Assembly (NCBI GenBank): GCA_963707635.1
Contig: OY970173.1
Coordinates: 2,603,663 to 2,667,662, forward strand
Length of the DNA: 64,000 nucleotides
From: Candidatus Latescibacterota bacterium
GTDB lineage: Bacteria > Krumholzibacteriota > Krumholzibacteriia > WVZY01 > JAKEHA01
Reading direction: 5' to 3'
Below the pieces are notes generated by a model. It was not told where the DNA came from. It was given only the letters and a program-made list of their open reading frames with translations, and searched no databases. Position 1 is the stretch's first letter, and each line of letters opens with the position of its first letter. This document shows, one piece after another, positions 6,920 through 63,934 of the stretch. A program made the translations under genes and the position numbers.

Positions 6920-6933
6920 ACCGAGTTACTCAG

Positions 6934-6973
6934 GGCGGGCGCCGAAGGGCGCCCGCCGCCCGCACCGATTTCC
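6934..6973 (+). terminator. GC-rich hairpin, probable terminator after redoxin gene
   Basis: Perfect 10-bp stem GGCGGGCGCC-GAAG-GGCGCCCGCC 15 nt after stop; weak U-tract (GAUUUCC). Confidence 0.4.
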
Positions 6974-6992
6974 CCGGCCGCGGCCCAATGGG

Positions 6993-7022
6993 TTGACACA
7001 ACCCTTTGTAATCCCGTACAGT
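6993..7022 (+). promoter_or_regulatory. candidate sigma70 promoter for the 1571-aa peptidase gene
   Basis: Perfect -35 TTGACA, 18-nt spacer, -10 TACAGT, about 38 nt upstream of ATG 7061. Confidence 0.45.
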
Positions 7023-7060
7023 TACCGCTGCGGGCCGGCTCAGGAACCGGCCCCGATCCG

Positions 7061-10000: not shown

Positions 10001-11776
10001 CGCGTGTACCGTTCGACGTCCGCGACCGGGCCGTTCACGCGCGCGACTCCCGACGTCGTGACGCACACCATGTTCACCGACGCCGGGCTGGCGCCGAACA
10101 CGCGCTACTACTTCGCCGTTACCGCCGTCGACGGGTCGTGGAACGAGAGCGCATTCTCCGCGGTCGGCTCCGCGTCGACCAACCCGCCCCAGCTCGCGGG
10201 CTGGCCGAATTCGCTCGCCGATCCCTCCTCGAATTCACCCGCGATCGGGGACATCGACGGCGACGGCGACCTCGAGGTCGTGATCGGAAACAACCTTCTC
10301 TACGCCTTCGGACACGACGGCGGCGAAGTCCGCGACGGGGACGGCCAGGCGTTGACCTGGGGCGTGTTCTCCGGCCTGGGCAGGGACTTCATCGGTCCGG
10401 CCGCGCTCGCGAAACTGGACGCGCGCACGGGGCTCGATATCGTGGCCGCGGCCGCCACCTCGCGGGAGGTCTACTGTTTCAACGGTGACGGCAGCGTGCT
10501 GCCCGGGTGGCCGCGGCCGACCATCGACGCGGTGCGCGCGGGCGTGGCAGTCGGCGACCTCGACGGCGACGACAGGCCGGAGATCGTCGCGATCGACCAG
10601 GACGCGAATCTGTACGCGTGGCATGCCGACGGATCCGAAGTCCGCGACGGCGACTCGAATCCCGCCACCGACGGCGTTTTCCGCCGTCTGCCGGATACGT
10701 CGCAGATGCAGTACCAGATGCCCGCGCTCGCCGACATCGACCAGGACGGGAAGGACGAAGTGATCATCCCGACCCAGGACAAGAAGCTATACGTGCTGAA
10801 CGAGTTCGCGGCGGACGAGCCGGGTTGGCCGCGCACGCTTCCCAACTACGCGGGCGGCGGAGTCGCGGTGGGCGACATCGACGCCAACGGCGATCTCGAG
10901 ATCGTGGTCACGGTACGGGGTTCCGGAGAGACATACGCGCTGCACCACGACAACACCCAGATGTGGATTCGCTGGCTGCAGCACAACAACTTCTTCAATC
11001 CGTCCCCCGCGCTCGCCGACATCACCGGTGACGGCAAGCTCGAGGTGCTGATCCCGGGCTCCAACGGAAGGCTGTACGCGATCACGCCCACCGGAGCGGA
11101 CGCGCCGGGATGGCCGGTGGTCTATTCGGCGACCACCTACACCGAGTCGTCGCCCATCGTCGCGGACGTGAACGGCGACGGGTCGCCCGACATCCTGCTG
11201 GGCGACGAGGGGGCCTTCATCAACGGCTGGAGATCCAGCGGCGCGCCGCTCGACGGCTTCCCGCTGGTGATGAAGGACTCGGTGCGCGGGACGCCGGCGA
11301 TCACCGACCTGGACGGGGACGGCAGCGTCGAGATCGTCGCGGTCGGGTACGACCGCTCGGTGTACGTGTGGGACATGCCGGGGGCATACAGCGAGGCGAC
11401 GGCGCCGTGGCCGATGTTCCACGCGAACCTCCATCGCAACGGGGTGTATGGCTTCGTCGTGCCGACGGGCGTCGGCGACTCGCCACGGGCGGCCGGGCTG
11501 ACGCTCGAACCGAACTACCCGAATCCCTTCAACCCCACGACGTCGATCGTGTTCGAGATTCCGGATGGTTCGGCGCAGAGAGTTTCGCTGGTCGTTTACG
11601 ACGTGACCGGTGCGCGCGTGCGCACGCTGCACGAGGGAGTGGTGCAACCGGGCCGCCACGTCGTCGCGTGGGACGGGCGCGGCGAATCGGGGGCCGCGGT
11701 GGGTTCCGGCGTCTACTTCTACCGGCTCGCCACCCCGCAGCAAGCGCTCACCCGCAAGATGGTGCTCTTGAAGTAA
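7061..11776 (+). CDS. giant secreted multidomain protein: peptidase C25 (gingipain-like) domain + FG-GAP/VCBS beta-propeller repeats + FN3-like region + C-terminal T9SS type-A/FlgD-Ig sorting domain
   Basis: Signal/TM N-terminus MRKTVLTLLLVSIIAVPLWI; C25-like block DCIIVAPAALAAPFDALADWKTAKGVPT...WVLLVGDTPEIPPRYLY...YFACLDGSFNADGD...LSVGRLPV; at least 7 repeats of x-GDIDGDGDLEVV / VGDLDGDDRPEIV / ADIDQDGKDEVI type (FG-GAP); C-terminus NYPNPFNPTTSIVFEIP...VYDVTGARVRTL...GVYFYRLA...TRKMVLLK. Confidence 0.8.
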   Translation: MRKTVLTLLLVSIIAVPLWISGHTASVRIEVDVPTSPGDFSVTAAGRYTSVSPVPSASGSFFTVNDVGRPSIPARIVYVALPDGRSFASVIASAEGTSTLARGVELAVAAPPAPAPDLPAPGVAVAQDALAPYLAGAEFPSELVRYLGSGTWHGYTVASFAVFPLQVVEGDLVLHADVRLSIDTEPAAGPGAERALRMSSARARDIETRLRGLIANDEALATYPPIPHDEHRGPFGASVAPSLEGSPVDCIIVAPAALAAPFDALADWKTAKGVPTVVRTVEWIEANYPRGIDRAETIRFFLQDAYTKWGVQWVLLVGDTPEIPPRYLYTAYYYGGTLVPADLYFACLDGSFNADGDTRFGEQPADQPDLYAELSVGRLPVSTLADAANVVSKIMSYETPLDTEYVDKTLFLAEVLFPAPWSPPAPIQLNGGDMAEFVRIRHVQSPSRRVTRLYETPALFAGSLPESRSIAIDSLNAGYDFVFHVGHGYRFNMHCADENIAIPDADALYHPNRFFNLYMSNCTAAAFNFDCLAERMLRNPNGGAVSVIGAVSSSFAEISTDYMEAYAGAVFDGADPVHIGDAFAASRASRTALAMLDDNSDLWTHYVYTLLGDPEMTLWTGPVRTPVVSHPASLVAGTTVVAVGVDVDGLPQANATVCLSKDGEDYQVGTTNAAGQASFVLSTRTTGQVRVVVTGRNLARHESAIAIESAASVLLSIDEVLINDNRFEFGTFVIGDGVVDAGEAVELTPTVRNTGGAASAPAVATLTTTAPFVTIANATVPVRVLAPGQSVLADDSWRVQFAADAPDGALASFSVTIAGNATWSDTFSETVHAPAFALTSLRTSDAAPVGNGDGVISSGEQFLLFVTLKNHGTGTAAGLVATLSALDAGATVFSGLAQVGDIAALAERESESAFRLLEADATVQNHLRLIVTDTYGHSLTHTIELRKPVAPAIQSFDASLGVDKMLIRWNASPSSDVVGYRVYRSTSATGPFTRATPDVVTHTMFTDAGLAPNTRYYFAVTAVDGSWNESAFSAVGSASTNPPQLAGWPNSLADPSSNSPAIGDIDGDGDLEVVIGNNLLYAFGHDGGEVRDGDGQALTWGVFSGLGRDFIGPAALAKLDARTGLDIVAAAATSREVYCFNGDGSVLPGWPRPTIDAVRAGVAVGDLDGDDRPEIVAIDQDANLYAWHADGSEVRDGDSNPATDGVFRRLPDTSQMQYQMPALADIDQDGKDEVIIPTQDKKLYVLNEFAADEPGWPRTLPNYAGGGVAVGDIDANGDLEIVVTVRGSGETYALHHDNTQMWIRWLQHNNFFNPSPALADITGDGKLEVLIPGSNGRLYAITPTGADAPGWPVVYSATTYTESSPIVADVNGDGSPDILLGDEGAFINGWRSSGAPLDGFPLVMKDSVRGTPAITDLDGDGSVEIVAVGYDRSVYVWDMPGAYSEATAPWPMFHANLHRNGVYGFVVPTGVGDSPRAAGLTLEPNYPNPFNPTTSIVFEIPDGSAQRVSLVVYDVTGARVRTLHEGVVQPGRHVVAWDGRGESGAAVGSGVYFYRLATPQQALTRKMVLLK

Positions 11777-13302: not shown

Positions 13303-13914
13303 TCAGAACGGGTCGGGAACTTCGACTGTCTGCGGGATGATTATCTGGATGGCGAGCCACGCGCGCCAGTCGAACACCATCGGATCCCCCGGTGTCGGCG
13401 TGTTCGGCAGGATCGTCCCGTGCTGGACCTCGAAGGTCAGTACCGGGTTCTGGTTGTTGTTGATGAAGTCATTCAATGCGTCGTTGATCAGGTCCACGCC
13501 CAGCGGCTCGAGCGGGGCCGCTATCTTCTTGCCGAGAGCGGCCTGCACCGACTGACTCGTGTAATCCACGATCACCACCGCGGGGCCGCCGTCGCGCGCG
13601 ACCCGGATCTGACCGGTGAGGACCCAGTCGTGGGTCTGCGAGGAAGGAATCGATGTGACCCCGTAACTCACCGACGTCACGAACGCCGAGTCGAGGTCAC
13701 TGGTGGTGTAACCATTGTCCTCCAGGATGTCGCGGACCTCCTCGGCAACGTCGACCACCGCCGTTTCGGGGTTGTCGGCGCTGGTCTCGTTCTCATTGAA
13801 GTCGGCGTAGGTCTCGCCGGTCAGCACCAGCTGGAGCACCTTCTCGTCGAGGCAACTACCCAGAAGCGCGACGAGACCAAGCGTCAGGACCAAAATAAGC
13901 AACGTACGTGTCAT
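13303..13914 (-). CDS. lipoprotein, hypothetical
   Basis: ATG at comp. 13912-13914 with AGGAG 10 nt upstream; MTRTLLILVLTLGLVALLGSC lipobox-like signal; upstream part of track ORF is Arg-rich noise. Confidence 0.6.
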   Translation of the reverse strand: MTRTLLILVLTLGLVALLGSCLDEKVLQLVLTGETYADFNENETSADNPETAVVDVAEEVRDILEDNGYTTSDLDSAFVTSVSYGVTSIPSSQTHDWVLTGQIRVARDGGPAVVIVDYTSQSVQAALGKKIAAPLEPLGVDLINDALNDFINNNQNPVLTFEVQHGTILPNTPTPGDPMVFDWRAWLAIQIIIPQTVEVPDPF

Positions 13915-41007: not shown

Positions 41008-43821
41008 ATGCGATCACTGCTGCTGGTTCTCCTGCTGACAGGCTTCTCCGCCGACGCCCGGGCCGCAGGAGTCGATCTCCAGGCCATGCGAACCGAACCG
41101 GCCCCGGGCCTGGGCGACTATGACGCCCCGTTCTGGCCGGACGGCGCCTACCGGACGGACGTCCAGTCTCCCTCGGACTTTCTCGGCTACCGGGTCGGCT
41201 CGAAGCCAGCCCCGCACGCCGACATCGTCCGTTACTACCAGTACCTGGACCAGTTTCCGACCGCGGAACTTCGCTCCTACGGCGAGACCTACGAGGGGCG
41301 ACCCCTCATCTATCTGATCGTCGCCTCCGAGACGAATGCGCCCCGTCTGGAGGAGATACGCAAGGCATGCCTCGAGCTCGCCGACCCGCGCCAGACCGGG
41401 AAGGTTCGCGAATTGATCGCGCGTACGCCGGCGGTCGCCTGGATGGCGTACGGCATCCATGGCGACGAGCTTTCGAGCGACGACGCCGCCCTCGAGCTGG
41501 CCTACCAGTTGGTGGCGGGCACCGACGCGACCACCCGGAAGATCCTCGACAACTGCGTAGTCATCATCGACCCGGCGGAGAATCCGGACGGCCGGTCACG
41601 GTGGCTCACCCAGCTCGAGCAGTGGAATGGCGTCATTCCGAGCTACGACGTACAGAGTATCTCCCACACCGGCGTATGGCCGTACGGGAGAACCAACCAC
41701 TACCTGTTCGACTTGAACCGCGACTGGTTCGCGCTCGTCCACCCCGAAACGCAGGGGAAGACGAAGGCGATCCTCGAGTGGATGCCGCACTACGTGCTCG
41801 ACTGCCACGAAATGGGGCCGCTCGACACCTACCTGTTCTCGCCGCCGCGGGAGCCGTTCAACCCGTACATGACCGGATACATCCACAAGTGGTGGGACCG
41901 CGTCGCGAAGAAGCACGCGGAGTACTTCGACCGTTTCGGCTGGAGCTACTACACCCGGGAGTGGAACGAGGAACTCTATCCGGGCTACGGCAGTTCGTGG
42001 AGCATCTACCTCGGCGCGGTGGGCATGCTGTTCGAGCAGGCCGGCGTCGACGGCTCTGTGGTCAAGCGTCCCGAGGGCAGTGTAATGAGCTACCGTGAAA
42101 CCGTGCACCACCAGTTCGTGGGCTCGATGGCGAACCTGCTCGCCGTCGCGGAGGGCCGGGAGGAACTGCTCACCGACTATCGCCGCCAGAAGGAGGAGAA
42201 TCTGCGCGCCCGCCCCGCCGCGTTCGTGTTCGCGGCGGGCGCGAACCGCACCCGCCTCGACCGGCTGGTGGAGAAACTCGAGCACCAGAAGATCGAGGTC
42301 GAGCGCGCCACCAAGCCGTTCAAGCTCTCGCGCGCCCGCGCGTGGGACGGGACCGAGGCGCGCAACCTCGAGATTCCGGCCGGCAGCGCCATCGTGCGCA
42401 CGAACCAGCCGCTCAAGCAACTCGTCGAGGCGATTCTCAGCTTCGACATCCGCATCCCGACGTCGTTTCTGGAGAGCGAGAAGAAAGAGATTCTCGCGCG
42501 CGACGACTCCCGTCTCTACGACGCCACCGGGTGGTCGCTTTCGCTGGCGTACGGACTCGAGGCCTACCAGGTGGACGGAGGGACCGGCGCCTCCACCGAG
42601 CCATACACGATCGTGCCCCGCACGGGCGGACTCTCGGGCGAAAACGCGAAGGTCGGGTTCGCCTTCGACGGTCGCGACGACCGCGCGTTCGAGCTCCTGG
42701 CGCGTCTCTTCGAGCACGACGTGAAGGTGTGGTGCGCCCGCAAACCGTTCGCCTCGGGCGGGGTCGTTTTTCCGCGGGGGAGCTTCCTCATCCGCCGCGC
42801 CGGCAATCCTTCGCTCGACGTGGCCGCGCTGCGCGCCCTCGCTGAGTCGGCCGGCGTGGACCTGGTCGGCGTGGACTTCGGGCTCGGCGCCGGTGACAAC
42901 GCCGACGCAGGCGGAAACGAGTTCGTGCTGCTGGCGCCGCCGCGGATCGCACTCGTCGCGGGCACCGGCATCAACTATTACGACTATGGCGCGATCTGGC
43001 ACCTGCTCGACAGCCGCCTGCGCATGCGTTCCACAACGCTCGATGTGTCGCGGGTCGGCGGGAGCGATCTCTCGAAGTACAACGTCATCGTCCTGCCGGA
43101 CGCCTGGGATGGGGTGGACGGTTACAAGGGGCGTCTCGGCGAGGGTGGGCTGGCGAAGCTAAAGTCGTGGGTCAACGCGGGCGGAACGCTCATCGGCGAG
43201 GACGCCGGCGCCGCGTTGCTCGCGGACACGTCGGTCGCCCTGTCTTCCGCGCGCCTGCGCGACCAGGTGCTCAAGGATCTGCCCAGGTACGTCGCGTCGC
43301 TCGCCGCATCACGGGATGCGATGGCACCCAAAGTCGACAGCCTGGCATTGTGGGAAAACCGCGCAGCCATAGCGAAGAAGGATGAGAAAGCGGCCGCGGA
43401 AAAAAAGGACGACGATCTCGACGCCCGCAAGCGAACCGACGAGATCGCCCGCAAGCTCGCGCCGCGCGGCGCCATCGTGGCGGTGGACGTGGACGTCGAA
43501 CACTGGCTCGGCTTCGGGTGCGGACCGGTGGTGCCGGCATTGCTCAACACCGATCGCGCGTTCGTGACCGAAACCACCCGGGTGCCGGGGCGATTCGCCC
43601 CACCCACCCGCCTGCGACTGTCCGGTCTCATGTGGGAAGAAGCGCGCGCGCGGTGGGGAGAGACCGTGTATGCGGCGCGTGACGGCTCGGGCAGCGGCCA
43701 GGTCATCCTGTTCGCGTCGCTCCCCAACTTCCGGGGCTACTACTACGGCGCGGAGCGCATGCTGCTCAACGCCCTCTTCCTCGGACCGGGGATGGGAACG
43801 GCGACGCGCGTGGAATGGTAG
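41008..43821 (+). CDS. secreted M14-family zinc carboxypeptidase-like protein (large, multidomain)
   Basis: Signal peptide MRSLLLVLLLTGFSADARA; ...AYGIHGDELSSDDAALELAYQL...IIDPAENPDG... M14 zinc-binding/core motif. Confidence 0.7.
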   Translation: MRSLLLVLLLTGFSADARAAGVDLQAMRTEPAPGLGDYDAPFWPDGAYRTDVQSPSDFLGYRVGSKPAPHADIVRYYQYLDQFPTAELRSYGETYEGRPLIYLIVASETNAPRLEEIRKACLELADPRQTGKVRELIARTPAVAWMAYGIHGDELSSDDAALELAYQLVAGTDATTRKILDNCVVIIDPAENPDGRSRWLTQLEQWNGVIPSYDVQSISHTGVWPYGRTNHYLFDLNRDWFALVHPETQGKTKAILEWMPHYVLDCHEMGPLDTYLFSPPREPFNPYMTGYIHKWWDRVAKKHAEYFDRFGWSYYTREWNEELYPGYGSSWSIYLGAVGMLFEQAGVDGSVVKRPEGSVMSYRETVHHQFVGSMANLLAVAEGREELLTDYRRQKEENLRARPAAFVFAAGANRTRLDRLVEKLEHQKIEVERATKPFKLSRARAWDGTEARNLEIPAGSAIVRTNQPLKQLVEAILSFDIRIPTSFLESEKKEILARDDSRLYDATGWSLSLAYGLEAYQVDGGTGASTEPYTIVPRTGGLSGENAKVGFAFDGRDDRAFELLARLFEHDVKVWCARKPFASGGVVFPRGSFLIRRAGNPSLDVAALRALAESAGVDLVGVDFGLGAGDNADAGGNEFVLLAPPRIALVAGTGINYYDYGAIWHLLDSRLRMRSTTLDVSRVGGSDLSKYNVIVLPDAWDGVDGYKGRLGEGGLAKLKSWVNAGGTLIGEDAGAALLADTSVALSSARLRDQVLKDLPRYVASLAASRDAMAPKVDSLALWENRAAIAKKDEKAAAEKKDDDLDARKRTDEIARKLAPRGAIVAVDVDVEHWLGFGCGPVVPALLNTDRAFVTETTRVPGRFAPPTRLRLSGLMWEEARARWGETVYAARDGSGSGQVILFASLPNFRGYYYGAERMLLNALFLGPGMGTATRVEW

Positions 43822-52099: not shown

Positions 52100-53200
52100 A
52101 TGCGTGAAATTCTTTCCGCCATCGTCGGGATTCTGAACGAGTCGTCGGCCTACCTGCTGCTGGGGTTTGCGCTCGCGGGTGTGATTCATGTCGTGCTGGG
52201 GCGCCTGCCGCGCCTGACCGCGCAGCTCACCGGGTCCGGGCGGCGGCCGGTGCTGTGGGCGGCGCTCATCGGCGCCCCTATGCCACTGTGCTCGTGCAGC
52301 GTTCTTCCGGCCGCCATGGCGCTGCGGCACCGCGGCGCGAGCAAGGGTGCCACGGCGTCGTTCCTGGTCTCGGTGCCGGAAACCGATATCGTCTCGATCC
52401 TGGTGACGCTGGCATTGCTGGGCCCCTTCATCGCGCTGTATCGCCCACTCGCCGCGATTGCGAGCGCGCTCGCCGTCGGGTTCGTCGTGCGCTGGCTGGA
52501 GAATCGCGAGGTGCGCGCCGCTTCGACCTCCCATGCTGCTTCCGCTTCCGGGCTCGACGCCGCGTGCTGCGACCCGAAGCAGCCCGCCGTGGAGCATGCG
52601 CGCGCGCAGGCAGGGCCGTGGTGGGTGAGGGCATTTCGCTACGGCTTCGTCGAGATGTTCGACGACATCGTTCCGCAATTGCTGCTCGGCATCGTGCTCG
52701 CCGGCATCATCGGGACGTGGCTGCCGGAGATCGACCCCGGCCAGTTCCGAGGCGGGACGTTCATGTCGTACCTCGTCATGGTCGCCATCGGCGTGCCGTT
52801 GTACGTGTGCGCGGCCGCGTCGACGCCGATCGCCGCAGGGCTGATCGCGGGCGGCGTGAGCCCGGGCGCCGCGATGGTCTTCCTGCTGGCCGGACCCGCC
52901 ACCAACATCGCCAGCCTGATCGTGGTCCGCGGCGAGTTTGGAAACCGGATCTTCGCCGGGTACCTGGGCGCGCTCGTGCTGGCCAGCGTCGGCGCCGGCG
53001 CGCTGCTGGACTGGGTGCTGGGGAGCGCGAGCATCCCCGCGGCCGCGCCGGCCCATGTGCACGCAACGGGCTCGCGGGCGGCGATCGCGTTCACGATCGT
53101 GTTTCTCCTGTGGTCGGTCGTCAGCGCCTATCGTTCCCGGCTGCTCCCGCGCACCTGGGTCACGATCACGCGCGCGGCCGGGAGGCTCTCGCCGCGGTGA
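52100..53200 (+). CDS. DUF318/SO_0444-family permease (putative metal transporter)
   Basis: Two-fold repeated TM architecture with PMPLCSCSVLP motif characteristic of this permease family. Confidence 0.65.
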   Translation: MREILSAIVGILNESSAYLLLGFALAGVIHVVLGRLPRLTAQLTGSGRRPVLWAALIGAPMPLCSCSVLPAAMALRHRGASKGATASFLVSVPETDIVSILVTLALLGPFIALYRPLAAIASALAVGFVVRWLENREVRAASTSHAASASGLDAACCDPKQPAVEHARAQAGPWWVRAFRYGFVEMFDDIVPQLLLGIVLAGIIGTWLPEIDPGQFRGGTFMSYLVMVAIGVPLYVCAAASTPIAAGLIAGGVSPGAAMVFLLAGPATNIASLIVVRGEFGNRIFAGYLGALVLASVGAGALLDWVLGSASIPAAAPAHVHATGSRAAIAFTIVFLLWSVVSAYRSRLLPRTWVTITRAAGRLSPR

Positions 53201-54810: not shown

Positions 54811-55704
54811 GTGTTCAGTCGATCTCTCATAATCTGCACGCTCCTGGTCGGGCTCGCCCTTCCGGGCACAGCTTCGGCCAAGATCAAAGTGGCCGCCTCC
54901 ATCAACGACCTCGCTTCGATTGCGAGCAGCGTCGGCGGCGACAACATCGAATGTTTTGCGATCTCAAAGCCGAACTCAGACGTCCATCGCGTGGACGTCC
55001 TGCCTTCGTACATGGTCAAGGTGTCGCGGGCGCAGGTCTATCTCAAGGTCGGCCTAGGCCTGGACCAGTGGGCGGACGGCATCATCGACGGTTCCCGCAA
55101 CGAACACCTGGCCGTCGTCGATTGCGCAGAAAACGTGCCCGTGCTCGAAAAGCCCACCGGCGCGGTGACCGCCCTGATGGGGGACGTTCACCCGTTCGGC
55201 AACCCGCACTACTGGCTCGACCCGCGCAACGGCGGAATCATTGCGCGCAACATCGCCGAGGGACTGGCCAAGGTCGATCCGGATCACGCCGACGTCTATC
55301 GCGCGAACGCCGAAGCGTTCGCGAAGCAGGCGGAGGACGCGTACGCCCGCGACAAAGCCATCGCCGACGGCCTGCCCAACAAGGCCATGATCACGTACCA
55401 CCGTTCGTGGTCATATCTCGGCAATGCGTTCGGAATTGAGATCGTCGGCGAAGCGGAACCGGTCCCCGGCATCCCGCCGACCGGCAAGCACCTCGCGGAG
55501 CTCGTCGGAATCGTGAAGGCACAGAAGGTTCCGCTGTTTCTACAAGAGCCGTATTTTTCCAACGACGCGGGTGAGTTCCTGACCCGCGAGGGCGGCCTCC
55601 GCGTGGTGGTCATGTCCCCGTCCTGCGACTCACCCGCGGCGGGGAGTTACCTCGCGCATTTTGAACAGGTGATAAACGCACTCGCGAACACGAAGAAAGG
55701 GTAA
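54811..55704 (+). CDS. metal ABC transporter substrate-binding protein (ZnuA/TroA cluster-9 family)
   Basis: GTG start after AGGAGG; signal peptide; ...VHPFGNPHYWLDP...ITYHRSWSYL... cluster-9 SBP pattern. Confidence 0.75.
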   Translation: MFSRSLIICTLLVGLALPGTASAKIKVAASINDLASIASSVGGDNIECFAISKPNSDVHRVDVLPSYMVKVSRAQVYLKVGLGLDQWADGIIDGSRNEHLAVVDCAENVPVLEKPTGAVTALMGDVHPFGNPHYWLDPRNGGIIARNIAEGLAKVDPDHADVYRANAEAFAKQAEDAYARDKAIADGLPNKAMITYHRSWSYLGNAFGIEIVGEAEPVPGIPPTGKHLAELVGIVKAQKVPLFLQEPYFSNDAGEFLTREGGLRVVVMSPSCDSPAAGSYLAHFEQVINALANTKKG

Positions 55705-55713
55705 TGAACACTC

Positions 55714-56562
55714 ATGACCGAAGCCTTCGCGCTGCCATTCTTTCGAACCGCGGTGATCGTCGCCCTCGTGCTGGCGGGCATTCACGCGTATCTGGGTTTT
55801 CACATCGTCCGCCGCGGGGTTCTGTTCGTAGACCTCGCCCTTGCTCAAATGGCGGCGCTCGGGGTGGCCGTATCCGTCGCGCTTCACCTCGAACACAACG
55901 GGGCGGCTTCGTACCTGTTGGCCCTCGGGATGACGTTCGTCGGCGCGGCTGCCTTTGCCTGGCTGCGCGGGCGGTCGCGAAACATTCCGCTGGAGGCCTT
56001 CATTGGCATCGTGTTCGCCACGGCGCAGGCGATGGTGTTTCTGGTGCTGGAGAAGAGCCCCTCCGGCCCGGAGCACCTCAAGGAGACGCTCGTCGGGTCC
56101 ATCTTCACCGTCGATCCGAAGCACGTCGCTCGCGTCGCGATGCTCTACGCTGCGATCGGACTCGTGCACATCCTTCTGCGAAAGCCGTTCTTCGAGATTA
56201 CGAACGATCCCGTCGTCGCCGAGGCCCGCGGACGCCGCCTGTTCGTGTGGGACCTGCTGTTCTACGCGACCTTCGGGTTCGTGGTGACGTCGTCCGTGCA
56301 GATGGCTGGCGTGTTGCTGGTATTCGGGTTCCTCGTGATACCGGCGGTGGCCGGGCTGATCGCGACGTCGCGAACAGGCCCGGCGTTGGCCGTCGGATGG
56401 ATCTTCGGCTTCGTCGCGAGCGTGGCGGGATTGATCGGCTCGGTGGCTCTTGACCTCCCCGCCGCACCGAGCATTCTCGTCACGCTCACGGGACTGTTGT
56501 GCATCATGGGGCTTGCTATCGCCTTGTTTCGGAGGCTGCGATCAGGGAGGGTCGGCAGCTGA
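55714..56562 (+). CDS. metal ABC transporter permease (ZnuB/TroC family)
   Basis: 8-TM permease with conserved GxxLxxALxxPAA-like region; no cognate ATPase adjacent. Confidence 0.75.
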   Translation: MTEAFALPFFRTAVIVALVLAGIHAYLGFHIVRRGVLFVDLALAQMAALGVAVSVALHLEHNGAASYLLALGMTFVGAAAFAWLRGRSRNIPLEAFIGIVFATAQAMVFLVLEKSPSGPEHLKETLVGSIFTVDPKHVARVAMLYAAIGLVHILLRKPFFEITNDPVVAEARGRRLFVWDLLFYATFGFVVTSSVQMAGVLLVFGFLVIPAVAGLIATSRTGPALAVGWIFGFVASVAGLIGSVALDLPAAPSILVTLTGLLCIMGLAIALFRRLRSGRVGS

Positions 56563-56592: not shown

Positions 56593-58251
56593 TTACTGGC
56601 GCGTCAAAATACCGTACTTCCGGATCTTCAGGTGGAGCTGCTGGCGGCTGATGTCGAGGGCCTTGGCGGTGGCGGTGACGTTGTTCTGATTCTCGGCGAG
56701 CACCCGCCGGATGACGCGCTCTTCGAACCCGTCGACCTGAGCCTCCAGCGCGGCGGCCGATGGCTCGTCGGCCTGCGACTCACGCTGGCCTCCGCCGAAA
56801 AACCGCTCCAGGTCCCGGCTGTGGATGACACGGTCGTCGCCCCGGAACGCATACGCCGATTCCATCGCGTTCTTGAGCTCGCGCACGTTTCCGGGCCATC
56901 GCGCGTCGCGGATCATCGCGGCCGCATCGCGCGACAATCTGGGGTGGGGCTGTCCCTCTTCCTCCGCGAAGCGGCCCAGAAAGTATTCCGCCAGCGGAAT
57001 GATGTCTTCGCGCCGTTCGCGAAGCGGGGGTAACGTGACGCGAACGACGTTCAGTCGGTGGTACAGATCCTCCCGGAACCGCCCCTTCTCCATCGCGCCC
57101 TTCAAGCCCTGGTTGGTGGCCGCGACAATGCGAACGTCGACTTTGCGCACGCGCCCCTCTTCACCCAGGCGCGTTATCTCGCCGTTTTCCAACACGCGTA
57201 GGAGCTTTGCCTGGATATCGAGCGGCATGTCGCCGATCTCGTCCAGGAAGAGCGTGCCTCCGTCGGCGATCTCGAACACACCCGGTTTGTCGTAGTCGGC
57301 GCCGGTGAAAGCCCCCTTGCGATGCCCAAAAAGCAGACTCTCGACGAGCGTCGCCGGCATGTTGGCGCAATTCTGGGCCGCGAACGGACCGCCGCTGCGC
57401 GTGCTCCTATCGTGGATCGCACGAGCGAGCACATCCTTGCCAGTACCAGTCTCCCCCTCTATCAAGACCGTGCTGTCGCGCGGTGCGATCGTCACCACGG
57501 TCTCAAAGACCTCGAGCATGCGCTTGTTCTTGCTGATCATGCCCGACATCGCAAACTGCCGGGAGAGCTGTTCGCGCAGCATCAGGTTCTGCCCCTCGAG
57601 CTGGTCGCGCTGGCTCCTGATCTCCCCGTGGCGGCGTGCATTCTCGACCGCCTGAGCGGCCTGGGCGCTGAATGCACGCAGCATCTTCCGATCCGTCTCT
57701 ACAAACTTCGGGACGATACGCCCGCTGTCCGCGTAAATGACGCCGATCAGTTCGTTCTTGTAGACGAGCGGAAGGCACACGGCGGCAAGGATCCTCTGTT
57801 CGTGGATACTGCCGGTGGTGACGTGCTCGAGGTCGGTCTCGATGTACGGCTCGCGCGTATCGACGACCCCGTCGCGAATCGAGCGGCTGGTCGCCCGGGC
57901 GCTCTCTTCGTCCCAGTCCTGGTTGTCGCGCCGTCGACCCGTGAAGGTCGAAAAGGACCCGTCCGACTCGCGCAGCATGACGAATCCGCGTTCGCAACGG
58001 GTCACGCGGATGATCCCGTCCACGATGTGGTCGAGGATGTCCTTGAGGTCGAGTGTGGAAGCCAGCGAAACCGCCACGTCCAGAAGATCGTCGTAGCGGC
58101 GCTGGGGCTCGATCCCAGCCGTCGTGACGGGCGCCGGGATCGGCTCCGCGGGGCGCTTGGCCGTCCGCAACGCACTCTCCAAGACACGAAATTCGGCGAG
58201 CGGGTCCCGGGCGGGCGGGGCCTTCTTCGGCTTCCTGGGAGAAGAGGCCAT
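56593..58251 (-). CDS. sigma54-dependent Fis-family transcriptional activator with N-terminal GAF domain
   Basis: ATG comp. 58249-58251; GAF-like N-domain; AAA+ sigma54-interaction motifs GETGTGKD, GAFTGA, ESLLFGH-like, C-terminal Fis HTH; track ORF 5' extension is noise. Extended -10 TGCTAGAAT 7 nt upstream (leaderless). Confidence 0.8.
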   Translation of the reverse strand: MASSPRKPKKAPPARDPLAEFRVLESALRTAKRPAEPIPAPVTTAGIEPQRRYDDLLDVAVSLASTLDLKDILDHIVDGIIRVTRCERGFVMLRESDGSFSTFTGRRRDNQDWDEESARATSRSIRDGVVDTREPYIETDLEHVTTGSIHEQRILAAVCLPLVYKNELIGVIYADSGRIVPKFVETDRKMLRAFSAQAAQAVENARRHGEIRSQRDQLEGQNLMLREQLSRQFAMSGMISKNKRMLEVFETVVTIAPRDSTVLIEGETGTGKDVLARAIHDRSTRSGGPFAAQNCANMPATLVESLLFGHRKGAFTGADYDKPGVFEIADGGTLFLDEIGDMPLDIQAKLLRVLENGEITRLGEEGRVRKVDVRIVAATNQGLKGAMEKGRFREDLYHRLNVVRVTLPPLRERREDIIPLAEYFLGRFAEEEGQPHPRLSRDAAAMIRDARWPGNVRELKNAMESAYAFRGDDRVIHSRDLERFFGGGQRESQADEPSAAALEAQVDGFEERVIRRVLAENQNNVTATAKALDISRQQLHLKIRKYGILTRQ

Positions 58252-58300
58252 CGCGTCGATTCTAGCACACCCGGAGAACGATGCGTCCGTGGCGTTCGGC

Positions 58301-58334
58301 GACAAAAAGAAGAGCCCGCGTTCTGCGGGCTCTT
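58301..58334 (-). terminator. rho-independent terminator after small peptide gene (minus strand)
   Basis: On minus strand AAGAGCCCGC-AGAAC-GCGGGCUCUU followed by CUUUUUGUC. Confidence 0.65.
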
Positions 58335-58481
58335 CTCCGCGTGAGTCTCCCCGGCATCTTACAGCCGTCGCCTCACGCGGGCTGCGAGCCACTCGAGTTC
58401 TGGTAACTTGGGCGCCGTCCGTTGCGGCAACCGCCAGGATTCGCTATCCTACGCGCTCCCGGCGGTGGCTCGGTCTCGGGA

Positions 58482-58601
58482 CTACTTGCCCCAGGTGCTG
58501 TTGCCCCAGGTGCTGTTGCCCATGACACCCCAGATGCTCTTGCCAAACAGGGCCAGGACACCGAGGATCAGCGAGAAGTTCGAAAGAATAGTGAATCGCA
58601 T
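58482..58601 (-). CDS. small (39 aa) membrane peptide with tandem GNSTW repeat
   Basis: ATG comp. 58599-58601 with GGGAGG 8 nt upstream; MRFTILSNFSLILGVLALFGKSIWGVMGNSTWGNSTWGK; C-terminus encoded by perfect 15-bp tandem duplication (58488-58517); own sigma54 promoter and terminator. Confidence 0.45.
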   Translation of the reverse strand: MRFTILSNFSLILGVLALFGKSIWGVMGNSTWGNSTWGK

Positions 58602-58694
58602 GGCGTTGCCTCCCGTTAGTTTTCTCTCGTCGATTCGATCGGCTGGGGGATCGTTTCGCTTCGCTCCCGCTTTCGCCGCTTGGTTCCCTGTAAT

Positions 58695-58710
58695 GGCAAC
58701 CGGTGTACCA
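58695..58710 (-). promoter_or_regulatory. sigma54 (-24/-12) promoter candidate
   Basis: On minus strand TGGTAC-ACCGG-TTGCC (consensus TGGCAC-N5-TTGCW; GG and GC correctly spaced) about 85 nt upstream of the peptide ATG. Confidence 0.5.
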
Positions 58711-58905
58711 TACGGGCGGATAATTCCGATCAATCTCCTAACGTGTTCGTTCACAGCGTGTTATTCCCGGTGGTGTGCGGAAGTCCCTCGTAGTTCCGCC
58801 CACGGACCTGGGGGAGATTGTAAGGATTTGCTGACAGGTAGATCTCGATGGTTCATCGGCATATCCTCGTAACAAGAAGTAACTAATAGCAATACGGAGT
58901 GTAAA

Positions 58906-60285
58906 ATGAGCCTTACACCGGTATGTCGGGATTTCGGAACGGTTCCCACCCGTTGGGTCAGGTGCACCCTCGCCGCGGGGGTGCTTCTTCTCGGCCTGGT
59001 GGGAAACTCCGAAGCCCGGGAGATCTTCCCCTTCCCGATGACCTCGCGCGTGCTCGACAACGGCCTGACCCTGGTCATGGTGCCGTTCGACAGCCCGGGC
59101 ATCGTCGCCTACTACACGATCGTGCGGGCAGGTTCCCGCAACGAGGTGGAGCCCGGCAAGTCGGGCTTCGCGCATTTCTTCGAACACATGATGTTCCGCG
59201 GCACCGATCGGTACTCGGGCCCCGAGTTCGGCGCCCTGTTCCGCCGGCTCGGCAGCGATCCCAACGCCTACACGTCCGACGACGTCACCGTCTACCACGC
59301 GCTGATCGGGCGCGACGGTATCGAGTCGGTGATCGACGCGGAATCGGATCGATTCATGAACCTCAAGTATTCCGAGTCCGACTTCAGGCAGGAGTCGAAG
59401 GCGGTGCTCGGCGAGTACAACAAGAACTACTCGGACCCGGAGAACAAGTTGTACGAGAAGGTGCGCGACACGGCCTACACGACCCACACCTACCGGCACA
59501 CGACCATGGGATTCCTCGACGATATCCAGGCCATGCCGGACCAGTATGCGTACAGCCTCGAGTTCTTCCGGCACTTCTACACCCCGTCGAACTGCGTGGT
59601 GCTGGTGGTCGGTGACATCGATCCGGAGCGCACCTTTCAGCTCGTGAAGAAGTACTACGGGGCGTGGGCGGTGCCCCCGTTCCAACCCGACATCCCGGTG
59701 GAGCCGGCGCAGACGGAACCGAGGTCCGCGCACATCGACTGGCAGAACGCGACGCTCCCGTATGTCGCGGTCGCGTTCAAGATTCCCGCCTTCAGCGCCA
59801 GGACCCGAGATTCCGCCGCGCTCGACGTGCTCGCCGCTTTACTCTTTGACGAAACCAGCCCCCTCTACCAGGCGCTGGTCATCCAGGAGCAGAAGGTGGA
59901 CGAGTTGAGCGTGTACGCGCCGTTTCGCCGGGACCCCGGGCTCTTCCTGGTGCTGGCGCGGGTCAAGGACGCGGCGGACGTCGCGATGGTCCGTGACCGC
60001 ATCTACCAGACGGCCGACGAGGCGTCGCGGTCGACGGTCGACGCCGCGAAGCTGGCAGCGGTAAAGTCGAACATCCGGTATTCGTTCGCGATGAGTCTCG
60101 ACACCGCCCGCTCGGTGGCGGGGCACCTGACCCGCTTCATCGGGCTCACCGGGGACCCGTCGAGCATCAACGAGATGTATCAGAGCTACGATGAGGTCAC
60201 GCCCGACGATCTCAAGCGCGTCGCGGCCGCGTACCTCACCCGCCCCCGGAGCACCGAGGTCACCCTGTCGGGAGGTGCCCAGTGA
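58906..60285 (+). CDS. M16-family zinc peptidase (insulinase/pitrilysin-like), active subunit
   Basis: GGAG RBS; HFFEHMMFRGT inverted zinc-binding HxxEH motif. Confidence 0.8.
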   Translation: MSLTPVCRDFGTVPTRWVRCTLAAGVLLLGLVGNSEAREIFPFPMTSRVLDNGLTLVMVPFDSPGIVAYYTIVRAGSRNEVEPGKSGFAHFFEHMMFRGTDRYSGPEFGALFRRLGSDPNAYTSDDVTVYHALIGRDGIESVIDAESDRFMNLKYSESDFRQESKAVLGEYNKNYSDPENKLYEKVRDTAYTTHTYRHTTMGFLDDIQAMPDQYAYSLEFFRHFYTPSNCVVLVVGDIDPERTFQLVKKYYGAWAVPPFQPDIPVEPAQTEPRSAHIDWQNATLPYVAVAFKIPAFSARTRDSAALDVLAALLFDETSPLYQALVIQEQKVDELSVYAPFRRDPGLFLVLARVKDAADVAMVRDRIYQTADEASRSTVDAAKLAAVKSNIRYSFAMSLDTARSVAGHLTRFIGLTGDPSSINEMYQSYDEVTPDDLKRVAAAYLTRPRSTEVTLSGGAQ

Positions 60286-61814
60286 AGCACCCGAGACTCC
60301 GGTGGCCCGCGAGGAAGCCACATTCCATGAAGGCCCTTTCCGCCCTGACCGTTTGGCTGGCGATCGCGTCCTCCCCTGCCGCGGCCACGATACCCACCGT
60401 GCTGCTCCCCGTTCCGTCGTCCCCTCTGGTCACGTTCCGCGTCCAGTTCGGCACGGGGGCCGTCGACGATCCGGCGGGCCAGCGTGGGCTCACCCGGCTC
60501 ACGGCGTCGATGCTCTCGCAGGGCGGGACTCGAGCGTACTCGTACGAGGAAATCGTCCAGCGACTCTATCCAATGGCCTCGTCGGTGACGGCCTACGTCG
60601 ACAAGGAGGTGACGACGTTCGTCGGGACCACGCACGTCGACAACCTCGAGGCCTACCTCGAGCTGCTCGTGCAGATCATCGTCGAGCCGCGTTTCGACCC
60701 GAGAGACTTCGAACGCATCCGCACCAGTCAGGTCAACTACCTCGCCAATTCGCTGCGCGGGTCGAACGACGAGGAACTGGGCAAACAGTCGCTCGGCGTC
60801 CTCCTGTACGGAGGACACCCGTACGGGGCGCCGAACGAGGGGCTCGTCTCAAACCTGGAGGCGGTCACGCTCGACGACGTGAAAGCCCAGTACGCCCGAT
60901 GCTTCACGCGCGACAACGTGACGGTGGGACTCTCCGGCGGCTACCCGCCGTCGCTGGTGGAGCGCGTAACCCGCGCGCTCGAGAAACTGCCGGCCGGGCG
61001 GCCGGCCCGGAGCACACTCCCCGCGCCGAGTCCGATTGTCGACGTCGAGGTCCTCGCGGTCGAAAAGGACTGCATGGCGACCGCCATTTCGATCGGGTAC
61101 CCGATCGACGTGACGCGTTCGGATCCGGACTTCTGCGCGTTGCTGGTGGCGAATTCCCACCTGGGCGAGCACCGCACGTTCAACGGGCGGCTGATGACCC
61201 GGATGCGCGAAGTCCGCGGCCTGAACTACGGGGACTACTCCTACATCGAGCACTTCGTGCAGGACGGCGGCTCCACCTACCCGCTGACGAACCTGACGCG
61301 CAGCCAGCAGTACTTCTCCATCTGGATCCGCCCCGTCCAGCACCAGCACCGTCACTTCGCCCTGCGCCTGGCGATCTGGGAGCTGGACCGGCTGGTGCGC
61401 GAGGGGATGACGCAGGAGGATCTCGACGAGACCCGCACGTTTCTCAAGAACTACAGCCGGCTGTGGGCGCAGGACCAGAGCCGGCGCCTCGGCTACCTGA
61501 TGGATTCACGCTTCTACGGCACGAACGACTACCTGGCGACGCTACCCGCGAAGCTCGACGCGCTCACGCTCGAACAAGTGAATGCCGCGATCAAGCGGCA
61601 CCTGCAATTCAGTCGGCTGCGGGTGGCGATCGTGACCCGGGGGGCGGACGAGTTCCTGAACGCGCTGATCACCAACCAGGCGTCGCCGATGACGTACGAC
61701 GCGGAAGGGATTCCGGCGGACGTGATCGCCGAGGACAAGGCGATCGCGGTCTACAAATTGAATGTGAATCGCGCGGCGTCGAAGATCGTCGACGTCGAGG
61801 AGATGTTCAAGTAA
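60282..61814 (+). CDS. M16-family peptidase, probable non-catalytic partner subunit
   Basis: Start overlaps upstream stop (GTGA) or ATG 60327 (MKALSALTVWLAIASSPAAA signal); M16 fold without HxxEH. Confidence 0.7.
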   Translation: MKHPRLRWPARKPHSMKALSALTVWLAIASSPAAATIPTVLLPVPSSPLVTFRVQFGTGAVDDPAGQRGLTRLTASMLSQGGTRAYSYEEIVQRLYPMASSVTAYVDKEVTTFVGTTHVDNLEAYLELLVQIIVEPRFDPRDFERIRTSQVNYLANSLRGSNDEELGKQSLGVLLYGGHPYGAPNEGLVSNLEAVTLDDVKAQYARCFTRDNVTVGLSGGYPPSLVERVTRALEKLPAGRPARSTLPAPSPIVDVEVLAVEKDCMATAISIGYPIDVTRSDPDFCALLVANSHLGEHRTFNGRLMTRMREVRGLNYGDYSYIEHFVQDGGSTYPLTNLTRSQQYFSIWIRPVQHQHRHFALRLAIWELDRLVREGMTQEDLDETRTFLKNYSRLWAQDQSRRLGYLMDSRFYGTNDYLATLPAKLDALTLEQVNAAIKRHLQFSRLRVAIVTRGADEFLNALITNQASPMTYDAEGIPADVIAEDKAIAVYKLNVNRAASKIVDVEEMFK

Positions 61815-62563: not shown

Positions 62564-63934
62564 ATGTTCACAACCATTTCCAGCGTATCGCGTCCGCGCG
62601 CCGCGGCGCTCGTTCTGACGGTCGCGGTCGCGCTCGCCGGCGTTGCGTGCGACGACTCCACCACTCCGCCTCCGGCGCCGACCGGAATCGACATCGTCTC
62701 CGGCGACGCCCAGTATAGCAAGAAGGGAACGGAACTGGAGGAGCCGGTGACCGTGCAGGTGTCACTGCCCGACGGCGAGCCGGCGGCCGGCTACGACGTC
62801 CAGTTTCAGGTGATAGAAGGCGGGGGCAGCCTGTCCGCCGGGGCGGCGACGACCTCGGCCGATGGAATTGCGTCGGTACGCTGGACGATGGGGCCCGCCG
62901 TGGGTCTGAACCGCCTGCGCATTTCGCTCGCCGATAATTCGTCGCTGACAGCGGTGGCTTCCGCCACCTCGGGCGAGTTCTACTGTCCGGAAGAAGATCC
63001 CACCTTCGCGAGGAAATTCTCCACCGCGCACAATCTCTTCCTGCTCTCGCGGGATGCCGGCGCGCTGGAATCGGCCGGTGAGCCCGCGGCGGGCGTGGTC
63101 TACGTCGAACTCGATCTCGGCAACCTGCTCTTCGAGGCCACCGCATTCGAGCGCTTCGACGAGACCGTGTCCCACCAGGTGGTGGTACGCGACTGCGCGT
63201 TTGCGGCGAGCGGCGATTTCTATGCGACGCGCAACTCGGTGGGCAACGACGTGGTCAAGTTCGCGTCCAACGGTACGCCCTCTCACTTCGCCATGCAGGA
63301 GTCGAACTTCGGCTCCGAGATCGACGCCACGCCGGCGGGAATCCTGGTGGGGTGCGACGCCTTCGGGCCCTTCGTCGTCACCTGCCGGGACACGCTCACC
63401 CGCTGGACCGCCACGACCTACAGCGGCGTCTACCCGGACGCCGCCAACAACGACGCGGTGGCAACCAATCCGGTCGACGACGACCTGTATTTCATCTATC
63501 TAGGCGATCGCGCGCTGTGGCGGGTGCCGCTCGACGGCCTCACACCCACGGGCCCGCCCGAGAAAGTAGTCACGCTCGAACGCGACGAGGCGGACGGGGC
63601 GAGCGGGATGGTGGTCAACGACAGCGACGGCTCCATCTACATTCTGGTGGAATCAAGCGCAGTCAAAGCGATACTCAAGGTGACGCCGGCCGGGACCAAG
63701 ACCGTCGAGTTCGATTTCTTCACACGGGGCGCGGGAGATGCGGCGGGCCAGCAGAGCGACCTGGCGATCGATCGCACGTACGACTTCCTCTATACGCTCG
63801 ACACCCGGAACAACGTGATCCTGATCTACCAGCTGGCTACCGGACAGATGTCCGAACTGGTTTCGGTTGGCGATCCCAACGCGGCGTCAAACGCGTCGGC
63901 GGGCGAACGCGTCGGCTTGTCGGTGCTTCCGTAG
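62564..63934 (+). CDS. lipoprotein with N-terminal Ig-like (Big_2-like) domain and beta-propeller-like C-terminal region
   Basis: AAGGA RBS; signal MFTTISSVSRPRAAALVLTVAVALAGVAC (lipobox-like); ...VTVQVSLPDGEPAAGYDVQFQV... Ig-like block. Confidence 0.55.
   Translation: MFTTISSVSRPRAAALVLTVAVALAGVACDDSTTPPPAPTGIDIVSGDAQYSKKGTELEEPVTVQVSLPDGEPAAGYDVQFQVIEGGGSLSAGAATTSADGIASVRWTMGPAVGLNRLRISLADNSSLTAVASATSGEFYCPEEDPTFARKFSTAHNLFLLSRDAGALESAGEPAAGVVYVELDLGNLLFEATAFERFDETVSHQVVVRDCAFAASGDFYATRNSVGNDVVKFASNGTPSHFAMQESNFGSEIDATPAGILVGCDAFGPFVVTCRDTLTRWTATTYSGVYPDAANNDAVATNPVDDDLYFIYLGDRALWRVPLDGLTPTGPPEKVVTLERDEADGASGMVVNDSDGSIYILVESSAVKAILKVTPAGTKTVEFDFFTRGAGDAAGQQSDLAIDRTYDFLYTLDTRNNVILIYQLATGQMSELVSVGDPNAASNASAGERVGLSVLP

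Follow-up and report, generated by a model that had tools for sequence, protein, structure and literature searches.

The question raised by this locus is whether a very short open reading frame (ORF), lying between a gene for a sigma-54 activator and a divergent pair of M16 peptidase genes, is a real gene, and if so, what controls it and what its product might do. The locus is situated in a 64,000 nt stretch of contig OY970173.1 of a Candidatus Latescibacterota bacterium; this whole stretch is referred to here as the window, and the coordinates of genes and elements are counted from its first letter. The gap between the activator ATG (58251) and the first M16 ATG (58906) is 654 bp in size with a G+C content of 57.8%, and that of the part containing the promoter and activator sites is ~50%, compared to 66% across the whole window. 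A 39-codon gene is found in this gap at positions 58482..58601 of the minus strand. Its translated product (MRFTILSNFSLILGVLALFGKSIWGVMGNSTWGNSTWGK) comprises one helix followed by G-x-S-x-W pentapeptide repeats, of which GNSTW-GNSTW is encoded by a perfect 15-bp tandem repeat (58486..58521, minus strand; 2.4 copies according to Tandem Repeats Finder), while a Shine-Dalgarno (SD) sequence, GGGAGG (58609..58614, minus strand), is located 7 nt 5′ of the peptide ATG. A preliminary description made from the DNA letters had reported this ORF, its ribosome-binding site, the 15-bp repeat and a -24/-12 promoter element, all of which were found in place.

Comparison of the window with 24 fetched metagenomic loci of the same clade bears on the status of the ORF. 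This clade sample comprises 25 loci including the window, where a padded query provided 11 close homologues and a metagenome scan 16 more loci. The ORF is intact in all 25 loci. Among the 24 distinct coding sequences, pN/pS over the first 37 codons is 0.20, and the variable sites are distributed 14/7/25 over codon positions 1, 2 and 3. Between two and seven G-(N/Q)-S-(T/M)-W units are present per locus, with length steps which are always multiples of 15 bp, so that the frame is kept. In loci with many units, the copies vary synonymously (GGC/GGT/GGA, AAC/AAT, ACC/ACG/ACT, and AGC versus TCC for serine) while GNSTW itself is retained, indicating selection on the amino acid sequence beyond mere DNA slippage. 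The GGGAGG sequence is unchanged in a nine-locus alignment, a GGAGG-type SD is present throughout a 22-locus alignment with variants (GGAGG, CAGGAGG), and GGAGG is likewise found in distant members. The peptide is also the best conserved product of the locus, sharing ~86% amino acid identity between the window and locus L013, as compared to 76% for the M16 protein and 55% for the activator. Absence or degeneration of the ORF or of its -24/-12 element in close relatives, or frame-breaking variation of the repeat, had been named beforehand as grounds for rejecting the gene; both ORF and element are conserved in the relatives and the repeat number varies in frame only. On the basis of these comparative data (24 loci, pN/pS, in-frame repeats and the invariant promoter described below), the 39-codon ORF is regarded as a real coding gene under purifying selection. 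An aberrant peptide C-terminus (P0011) was set aside as a frameshift artefact of locus L006 (ena contig_67823, 6300-10100), which derives from a frameshift-rich long-read assembly with fragmented M16 and activator genes.

An exhaustive profile search, together with a second indexed search, identified a wider family of ~125 clusters of 29-31 amino acid (aa) peptides with the consensus MRYxIxSNLGLILSxLAxLGKSVWGKSVW. The sequence ...GKSVWGKSVW forms the exact C-terminus in 67/130 clusters, and the C-terminal decapeptide is the best-conserved part of the peptide. When repeat-expanded forms are included, the length range of the family extends from 29 to 64 aa, and the window peptide is a derived, repeat-expanded member. 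Across 122 members, little or no variation is seen at M1, Y3, N8 (121/122), L9, G10, A17, G20, K21, S22, W24 and G25, while at R/K2 and S/T14 only the residue type is kept. An i, i+3/4 spacing places the small or polar residues S7-G10-S14-A17-G20 on one helix face, and the near-invariant positions N8, G10, S/T14, A17, G20 and K21 are spaced in this manner as well. With low to moderate confidence, an AlphaFold2 (AF2) model based on the family alignment places a helix at residues 3-27 (predicted local distance difference test, pLDDT, 55-78) and a disordered tail. Family members are annotated as 'hypothetical protein' in the source records, and one distant member occurs in a metagenome-assembled genome of Candidatus Krumholzibacteriota. 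Two matches of the profile search, P0014 and P0017, consist of long GESVW/GESTF low-complexity repeats and were excluded from the family.

The putative promoter of the gene, TGGTAC-ACCGG-TTGCC (GG-N10-GC; TGGTACACCGGTTGCC), resembles the consensus TGGCAC-N5-TTGCW and is a sigma-54 -24/-12 element recognized by consensus scan and conservation at positions 58695..58710 of the minus strand, from which transcription is predicted to start at ~58685, giving a purine-rich 5′ untranslated region (5′UTR) of ~85 nt. No conserved structure was found in this 5′UTR in the 22-locus alignment (RNAalifold energy 0). By itself the promoter match is non-significant in the window, where three matches with one mismatch are present against 1.5 expected, and the case rests on conservation. 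All 23 clade loci that reach far enough upstream carry TGGTACRCNGGTTGCC unaltered, 85-100 nt 5′ of the ATG, and TGGTAC, TGGCCC or TGGAAC-N5-TTGCC is found at the equivalent place in distant lineages. The other one-mismatch matches in the window, at 13898-13913 (minus strand) and 43529-43544 (plus strand), are not accompanied by a palindrome, and their number is that predicted by chance.

Upstream of this promoter are two 18-bp palindromes that represent candidate upstream activating sequences (UAS). In minus-strand reading, the proximal palindrome is TGTCAGCAAATCCTTACA (58819..58836), 126 nt upstream of the promoter TGG, and the distal one is TGTAAGGCTCATTTTACA (58900..58917), 207 nt upstream. 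The pattern TGTMA-N8-TKACA occurs exactly twice in the 64 kb, both times at the peptide locus, against 0.05 expected. Relative to the promoter TGG, the two palindromes keep a fixed place in the window clade (-125 to -127 and -205 to -207), and some loci have an additional one at -230 or -231. In distant lineages, including those which do not possess the M16 genes, palindromes are located at ~-125 and ~-215. The arms of the palindromes tend to match (TGTAA with TTACA, TGTCA with TGACA), and mixed sites, such as that at 58819..58836, also occur. In the related loci, which amount to 281 kb, such palindromes and promoters of the sigma-54 type are found only upstream of the peptide genes or their paralogues, with the exception of two beside the activator gene; in L037 and L040, a second paralogue (VKYLIVANLGLILMLVAWFGKSVWMS) is furnished with palindromes and a promoter of its own. 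The two palindromes are therefore likely to constitute the binding sites of the adjacent activator, a role for which a CGTGTT-N9/10-CGTGTT direct repeat had previously been put forward. The latter is conserved in the closest relatives only, and the palindromes further upstream are conserved in its stead. No convincing match to the integration host factor consensus was observed by eye between the UAS and the promoter. A GGAATT(AT) box (58722..58727, minus strand) is located 11 nt upstream of the -24 element, and ~9-15 nt upstream in relatives; it forms an invariant block in the window clade alignment, is found also in L030 and L034, and could be an UP-like or bending site. The distal palindrome (58900-58917) furthermore overlaps the SD-ATG region of the opposite-strand M16 gene, the start codon of which is at 58906-58908, and an activator bound there could affect M16 expression in the window clade as well.

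Downstream of the peptide gene, the transcript would end at an intrinsic terminator, GAGAAGAGCCCGC-AGAAC-GCGGGCUCUUCUC followed by U5 (~58304..58337, minus strand), with a 12-13 bp G+C stem. Folding with RNAfold gave a similar hairpin of 9-13 bp, rich in G+C and followed by a U run, in the window and 13 related loci, and the GCCCGC..GCGGGCTC part is unchanged across the alignment. The gene thus has its own terminator, as had been proposed. A simple promoter and terminator scanner overlooked this minus-strand terminator and gave no sigma-70 promoter, and folding and conservation were used instead.

The gene adjacent to this terminator (56593..58251, minus strand) codes for a 552 aa enhancer-binding protein with the GAF-AAA+-helix-turn-helix (HTH) architecture assigned to it in the preliminary description. 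Pfam domains GAF/GAF_2/GAF_3, Sigma54_activat (e-value: 1e-66), AAA_lid_14 and HTH_8 were identified, and the GAFTGA, Walker A (GETGTGKD) and Walker B (LFLDEIGD) motifs and the Fis-type HTH are intact. Comparison against NCBIfam yielded only generic bacterial enhancer-binding protein (bEBP) models, all below cut-off, and the scores for named equivalogs (such as NorR, NifA, FhlA and PspF) are all far too low for membership (for NorR, 350 versus a cut-off of 476). Orthologs retain GAFTGA-type loops and the recognition helix SRQQL(H/Y)xK(I/L), the conservation of which is in line with that of the palindrome half-sites. Scanning of genome contigs with the activator as query returned only two distant bEBPs, without synteny information, a word-indexed search with its N-terminal/GAF part gave three fragments only, and an exact look-up of the protein retrieved no record. 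An extended -10 element, TGCTAGAAT (58259..58267, minus strand), is present 7 nt upstream of the activator ATG, as previously noted, and TGnTAnnAT precedes the activator start in 14/15 orthologous loci. The distance to the ATG is 6-9 nt in six loci (the window and five others), 12-13 nt in three and 20-24 nt in five. A leaderless activator mRNA is thus likely for the window and some members of its clade, to which the earlier description of a leaderless gene applies, but not for all relatives, as the -10 element of others lies 12-13 or 20-24 nt from the ATG. In some clade members (L019, ~640-700; L022), the extended -10 (TGTTAAGAT) of the activator is embedded in a UAS-like palindrome (TGTTAAGATGGGTTGACA), with an additional exact palindrome just upstream of it in L019, which hints at autoregulation of the activator promoter. 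A second palindrome and promoter set is located directly upstream of the activator gene in L027 (6308-6540), suggesting positive autoregulation in that lineage.

The association of peptide and activator extends well beyond the window clade. Wherever a locus extends far enough downstream, the activator gene comes after the peptide gene, at activator identities of 41-93% and despite DJ-1 and M16 insertions and duplications, none of which ever splits the two. Gene content was listed for five distant lineages (L027; L030-L033; L034-L036; L037-L041; the P0021 contig), in which a GAF sigma-54 activator sharing 41-55% identity with that of the window directly follows the peptide gene or genes. Two peptide genes are present in some of these relatives (L030, 7001-7251; L037, 7001-7093 and ~7638-7718), and in L030-L033 the second copy lies in tandem with a separate ribosome-binding site. 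The comparative data indicate that the peptide-activator pairing is obligate, and this adjacency in every locus with enough sequence, at activator identities down to ~41%, makes the activator the most probable regulator of the peptide gene, as had been suggested. The synteny of peptide, activator and M16 pair proposed at the outset was only partly recovered. The peptide-activator unit is found in all contexts examined, while the M16 pair is confined to the window clade, where the order is always M16B <- M16A <- | -> peptide -> activator and where the pair is present in 19/24 fetched loci, the remaining five contigs ending before it. None of the five distant lineages (L027, L030-L041 and the P0021 contig) has the M16 pair, although all of them retain the peptide-activator unit, with DJ-1 or a conserved uncharacterised protein of 420-467 aa as the upstream neighbor of the peptide gene. 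Given this restriction to one clade, the M16 pair was evidently inserted beside the module, between DJ-1 and the peptide gene, in the window clade only and as such represents a lineage-specific neighbor.

With moderate confidence, we suggest that the locus is a self-contained sigma-54 module consisting of one regulator and one small effector, of which a small membrane peptide is the main, and possibly the only, local output. The GAF activator would be produced constitutively from the extended -10, sigma-70-type promoter, on an mRNA that would be leaderless in the window clade, and its Fis-type HTH would bind the two 18-bp TGTMA-N8-TKACA palindromes that precede the -24 element by 126 and 207 nt. 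A signal perceived by the GAF domain would then lead to ATP-driven opening of the Esigma54 complex at TGGTAC-N5-TTGCC, with a monocistronic mRNA of ~390 nt, ended by the strong intrinsic terminator, as the expected output. From the strong ribosome-binding site a 39-aa protein would be translated, which combines a conserved N-terminal helix (M-R-Y/F, Asn8 and the small/polar stripe) with presumably interfacial G-[KNQ]-S-x-W repeats. Within this scheme we infer from sequence the binding of the palindromes by the activator, the nature of the signal and the topology and function of the peptide. The invariant Asn and the small-residue stripe lead us to favor a single-pass membrane protein, and the modeled product is most likely a small inner-membrane protein of this type acting via helix-helix association, either with itself or with a membrane partner. 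Such a peptide would serve as an inducible envelope or membrane effector or as a feedback regulator.

Several observations weigh against this interpretation. Searches of the peptide against Pfam, NCBIfam and PDB were empty or gave chance-level matches only, so that homology gives no indication of its function, and the AF2 model is of low confidence (mean pLDDT 58). The hydrophobic segment of 17-18 residues, ending A-V/L-L/F-G|K, fits a cleavable Sec signal peptide too, from which a short Trp-rich peptide would be released, and positive charges flank it on both sides, which bears on the topology. The relatives compared all derive from uncultured bacteria. Furthermore, all loci share the wider order ArgS-PfkB-x-HD-GYP-AIRS-x-..., suggesting that the adjacency of peptide and activator is partly inherited rather than independently maintained.

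The region between the stop codon and the terminator raises the further question of whether the RNA itself has a role. In the window clade, this 3′ untranslated region (3′UTR) is ~180 nt long and highly structured (-80 to -100 kcal/mol in per-sequence folds, which were used as RNAalifold of the whole 3′UTR was hampered by alignment problems), while in distant members the stop codon and terminator are only ~20-40 nt apart and there is nearly no 3′UTR. A first long hairpin, ACCGCCGGGA...UCCUGGCGGU (58430..58466, minus strand), with the conserved loop motif AUAGCGAAU, was recognized by RNAfold of full 3′UTRs and alignment blocks, with covariation assessed by eye. A further hairpin (58338..58380, minus strand) lies directly 5′ of the terminator, and its apical part contains the motif GAUGCCGGGGAGA (58358..58346). 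This 13-nt motif is identical in 17/18 aligned loci, with CUAGCCGGGGAGA found in L016, and its core GCCGGGGAGA is present in 18/18. The outer stem covaries (GUGAG/CUCAC, GUGGA/UCCAC, GUGGUCUC/GAGACCAC, GUGGCCUC/GAGGCCAC), the fold is identical in 14/14 loci, and G.U pairs in L013 and L015 fit the minus-strand RNA only, placing the structure on the RNA of the peptide strand. The hairpin at 58338-58380 is specific to the window clade and is not found in distant members, and comparison with Rfam gave no match at the gathering score and only chance-level matches (e-value > 0.2). The invariance of GAUGCCGGGGAGA suggests a function, and the hairpin could be a 3′UTR-derived small RNA (sRNA) or a protein-binding element. 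The motif is also similar to the stretch around the SD and start codon of the second tandem copy of the gene in L030 (CCGAUGCCAGGAGG...AUG), and the hairpin may therefore be the retained relic of a lost second copy. Two further roles for the motif were rejected. Its pairing with the start of the activator mRNA amounts to 6 + 2 bp in the window, and the target is not conserved in relatives, while a 31-codon ORF beginning at an AUG within it (58357..58262) crosses the terminator hairpin and lacks a ribosome-binding site.

These RNA features, along with the neighborhood of the M16 genes and the size of the peptide, allow other readings of the locus. The transcript might act mainly or additionally as a sigma-54-dependent regulatory RNA, with the GAUGCCGGGGAGA loop as seed or protein-binding site and the ORF secondary. 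A short terminated transcript with several palindromic UAS beside a bEBP gene is the layout of known sigma-54 sRNA modules (GlmY/GlrR, Qrr/LuxO and the Desulfovibrio vulgaris non-coding RNAs), and the strongly structured clade 3′UTR, in which a covarying stem directly 5′ of the terminator encloses a motif that only one aligned locus departs from, accords with it. However, the ORF is under protein-level selection and has a strong conserved ribosome-binding site, distant members keep the peptide and not the RNA element, no Rfam family is matched and the invariant motif could be the relic mentioned above, and as such we hold this reading to be decidedly unlikely. It is very improbable that the peptide is a toxin- or holin-like pore former, comparable to the type I toxins TisB and Hok, which depolarises the membrane under a specific stress. 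Its size (29-39 aa), single hydrophobic helix and invariant Asn with a small-residue packing face, suggestive of oligomerisation, would suit this role, as would tight gating of transcription by sigma-54, with essentially no basal activity, and the long 5′UTR. The strong SD and unstructured 5′UTR are, however, unlike the translationally locked leaders of type I toxins, and no antisense RNA or antitoxin was detected, although no search aimed at one was made. A gene that has been duplicated and is passed on vertically and stably at one chromosomal position is also better explained as a housekeeping effector.

The exported M16 peptidase pair (58906..61814, plus strand) leads to another explanation. 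Pfam domains Peptidase_M16 and M16_C are found in both proteins, and the 459 aa protein contains HFFEH while the 510 aa protein is without HxxEH, in agreement with the earlier assignment of an HxxEH subunit and an inactive partner; signal-peptide-like N-termini can be read from both sequences. M16B heterodimers of the PqqF/G and AlbE/F type process peptide precursors, and in the window clade a pair of this composition is likewise found beside a small peptide gene. The peptide might thus be an exported precursor, with residues 1-20 as a Sec-type signal or leader and the Trp-rich tail (KSVWGKSVW in most of the family, KSIWGVMG(N/Q)STW(GNSTW)n in the window clade) released beyond the cytoplasm as a secreted or periplasmic peptide, for instance a signal or membrane-active peptide. 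In the window clade, the repeats would be trimmed or cleaved by the M16 pair, for which KSIWGVMGNSTWGNSTWGK is a candidate tail substrate. In line with this, the peptide has an n/h/c-like layout (MR, 14-15 hydrophobic residues and A-V-L-G|K) with G20-K21-S22 strictly conserved, its C-terminal decapeptide is the best conserved part and ends exactly ...GKSVWGKSVW in the 67/130 clusters noted above, one or two gene copies are present per locus, both M16 proteins carry putative signal peptides, the pair co-occurs perfectly with the repeat-expanded peptide and the distal UAS overlaps the M16 gene start. The absence of the pair from five distant lineages with a peptide-activator unit, however, reduces its co-occurrence with repeat expansion to a single phylogenetic event, and no co-inheritance of peptide and M16 protease across lineages, as required of a precursor of the ribosomally synthesized and post-translationally modified peptide type, was observed. 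Moreover, comparison of the M16 proteins with NCBIfam gave generic models only, below cut-offs, including those for PqqF and YfmH/F, and the neighbors listed include neither a modifying enzyme nor an ABC exporter or a peptide importer. Unlike the PqqF/G and AlbE/F systems, the window pair is exported and generic by hidden Markov model, is unlinked to the peptide outside the clade and is not accompanied by maturation enzymes. The invariant Asn8 and small-residue heptad stripe are also atypical of a plain signal peptide. We therefore consider an exported precursor unlikely, and the absence of the M16 pair in the distant lineages and of a linked modifying enzyme or exporter speaks against the pair as a dedicated peptide processor, a role initially put forward as one possibility. 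Least probable of all is an extension of this idea, whereby the exported peptide, cut into Trp-containing units by the M16 pair in the window clade, is sensed directly or after re-import by the activator GAF domain and drives its own gene. If true, this would represent a GAF-sensed peptide loop in a diderm lineage known only from uncultured bacteria, akin to quorum-sensing autoinduction but with a bEBP at its core.

The small membrane peptide module favored here has counterparts among characterized sigma-54 systems. A literature search for a described equivalent of the peptide-activator module found none. The statement in the preliminary description that no described system matches this arrangement stands for the peptide family, which is undescribed, but not for the regulatory architecture, as a short terminated transcript driven from a sigma-54 promoter with UAS palindromes, beside a bEBP gene, is known in kind. 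What is new is the peptide family, the pairing with its GAF-type regulator and the repeat dynamics. The GlrR sites at glmY/glmZ are listed as TGTC-N10-GACA palindromes (PMC4987338), and both the GlrR (QseF/YfhA)-glmY/glmZ and LuxO-Qrr systems resemble the window locus in having several palindromes of the TGTC-N10-GACA type ~100-200 bp upstream of a -24/-12 promoter and a short terminator-ended transcript beside the bEBP gene. They differ in that the window transcript encodes a peptide under purifying selection and the window activator is a one-component GAF sensor rather than a phosphorylated receiver domain protein. The genes pspG and zraP are sigma-54-dependent and encode small envelope proteins (PMC4987338). 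PspF-pspG and ZraR-zraP share with the window a dedicated bEBP and a monocistronic gene for a small envelope protein, and Zn/Cu transport genes are also found near the window module. The window peptide, however, shows no sequence similarity to PspG or ZraP and has no PspA-like partner, PspF is without a sensor domain and ZraR is a response regulator, whereas the product of the window family is 29-64 aa with Trp pentapeptide repeats. For the Desulfovibrio vulgaris bEBPs DVU0653 and DVU0679, an adjacent short transcript is the only predicted target (PMC4641369), which parallels the one regulator and one adjacent short sigma-54-dependent transcript of the window, but those transcripts carry a non-coding RNA annotation and are controlled by response regulators.

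Genome annotation systematically overlooks small membrane proteins, and a dedicated regulator is known for very few of them. The peptides described here make up a new family of small proteins that is unusually well supported by computation and has a cleanly delimited cognate unit of activator, sites, promoter and terminator. The in-frame expansion from two to seven pentapeptides, with the amino acids kept, furthermore provides a rare clear case of selection on the repeat content of a micro-protein. At ~2.6 kb, the module is compact enough for reconstitution in Escherichia coli, which would allow GAF-type bEBP sensing and the action of a Trp-repeat micro-protein to be tested. The significance of the module is limited in that its regulatory logic is classical and the organisms are uncultured.

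Additional genes flank the locus, with DJ-1, a 456-aa protein, Zn ABC transport components and a Cu/Zn efflux permease among the neighbors. Metal-transport genes are located beyond the activator gene, past its 3′ end and on the opposite strand, at 52100-53200 and 54811-56562 (both plus strand). They encode a Cu/Zn efflux permease that scores above the NCBIfam cut-off for the SO_0444 family, as well as a substrate-binding protein and a permease of the Zn/Mn ABC type. In L030 and L034, too, the activator has a member of this efflux permease family (Pfam ArsP_1; 54% identity in tblastn) as a neighbor. These metal-transport neighbors are a possible hint that the module may respond to metal or envelope stress. 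At 62564-63934 (plus strand), a 456-aa protein is encoded which contains only a weak Big_1-like stretch and belongs to no Pfam or NCBIfam family. This protein is kept beside the locus in all lineages (38-88% identity), and in those without the M16 genes it is the divergent neighbor of the peptide gene.

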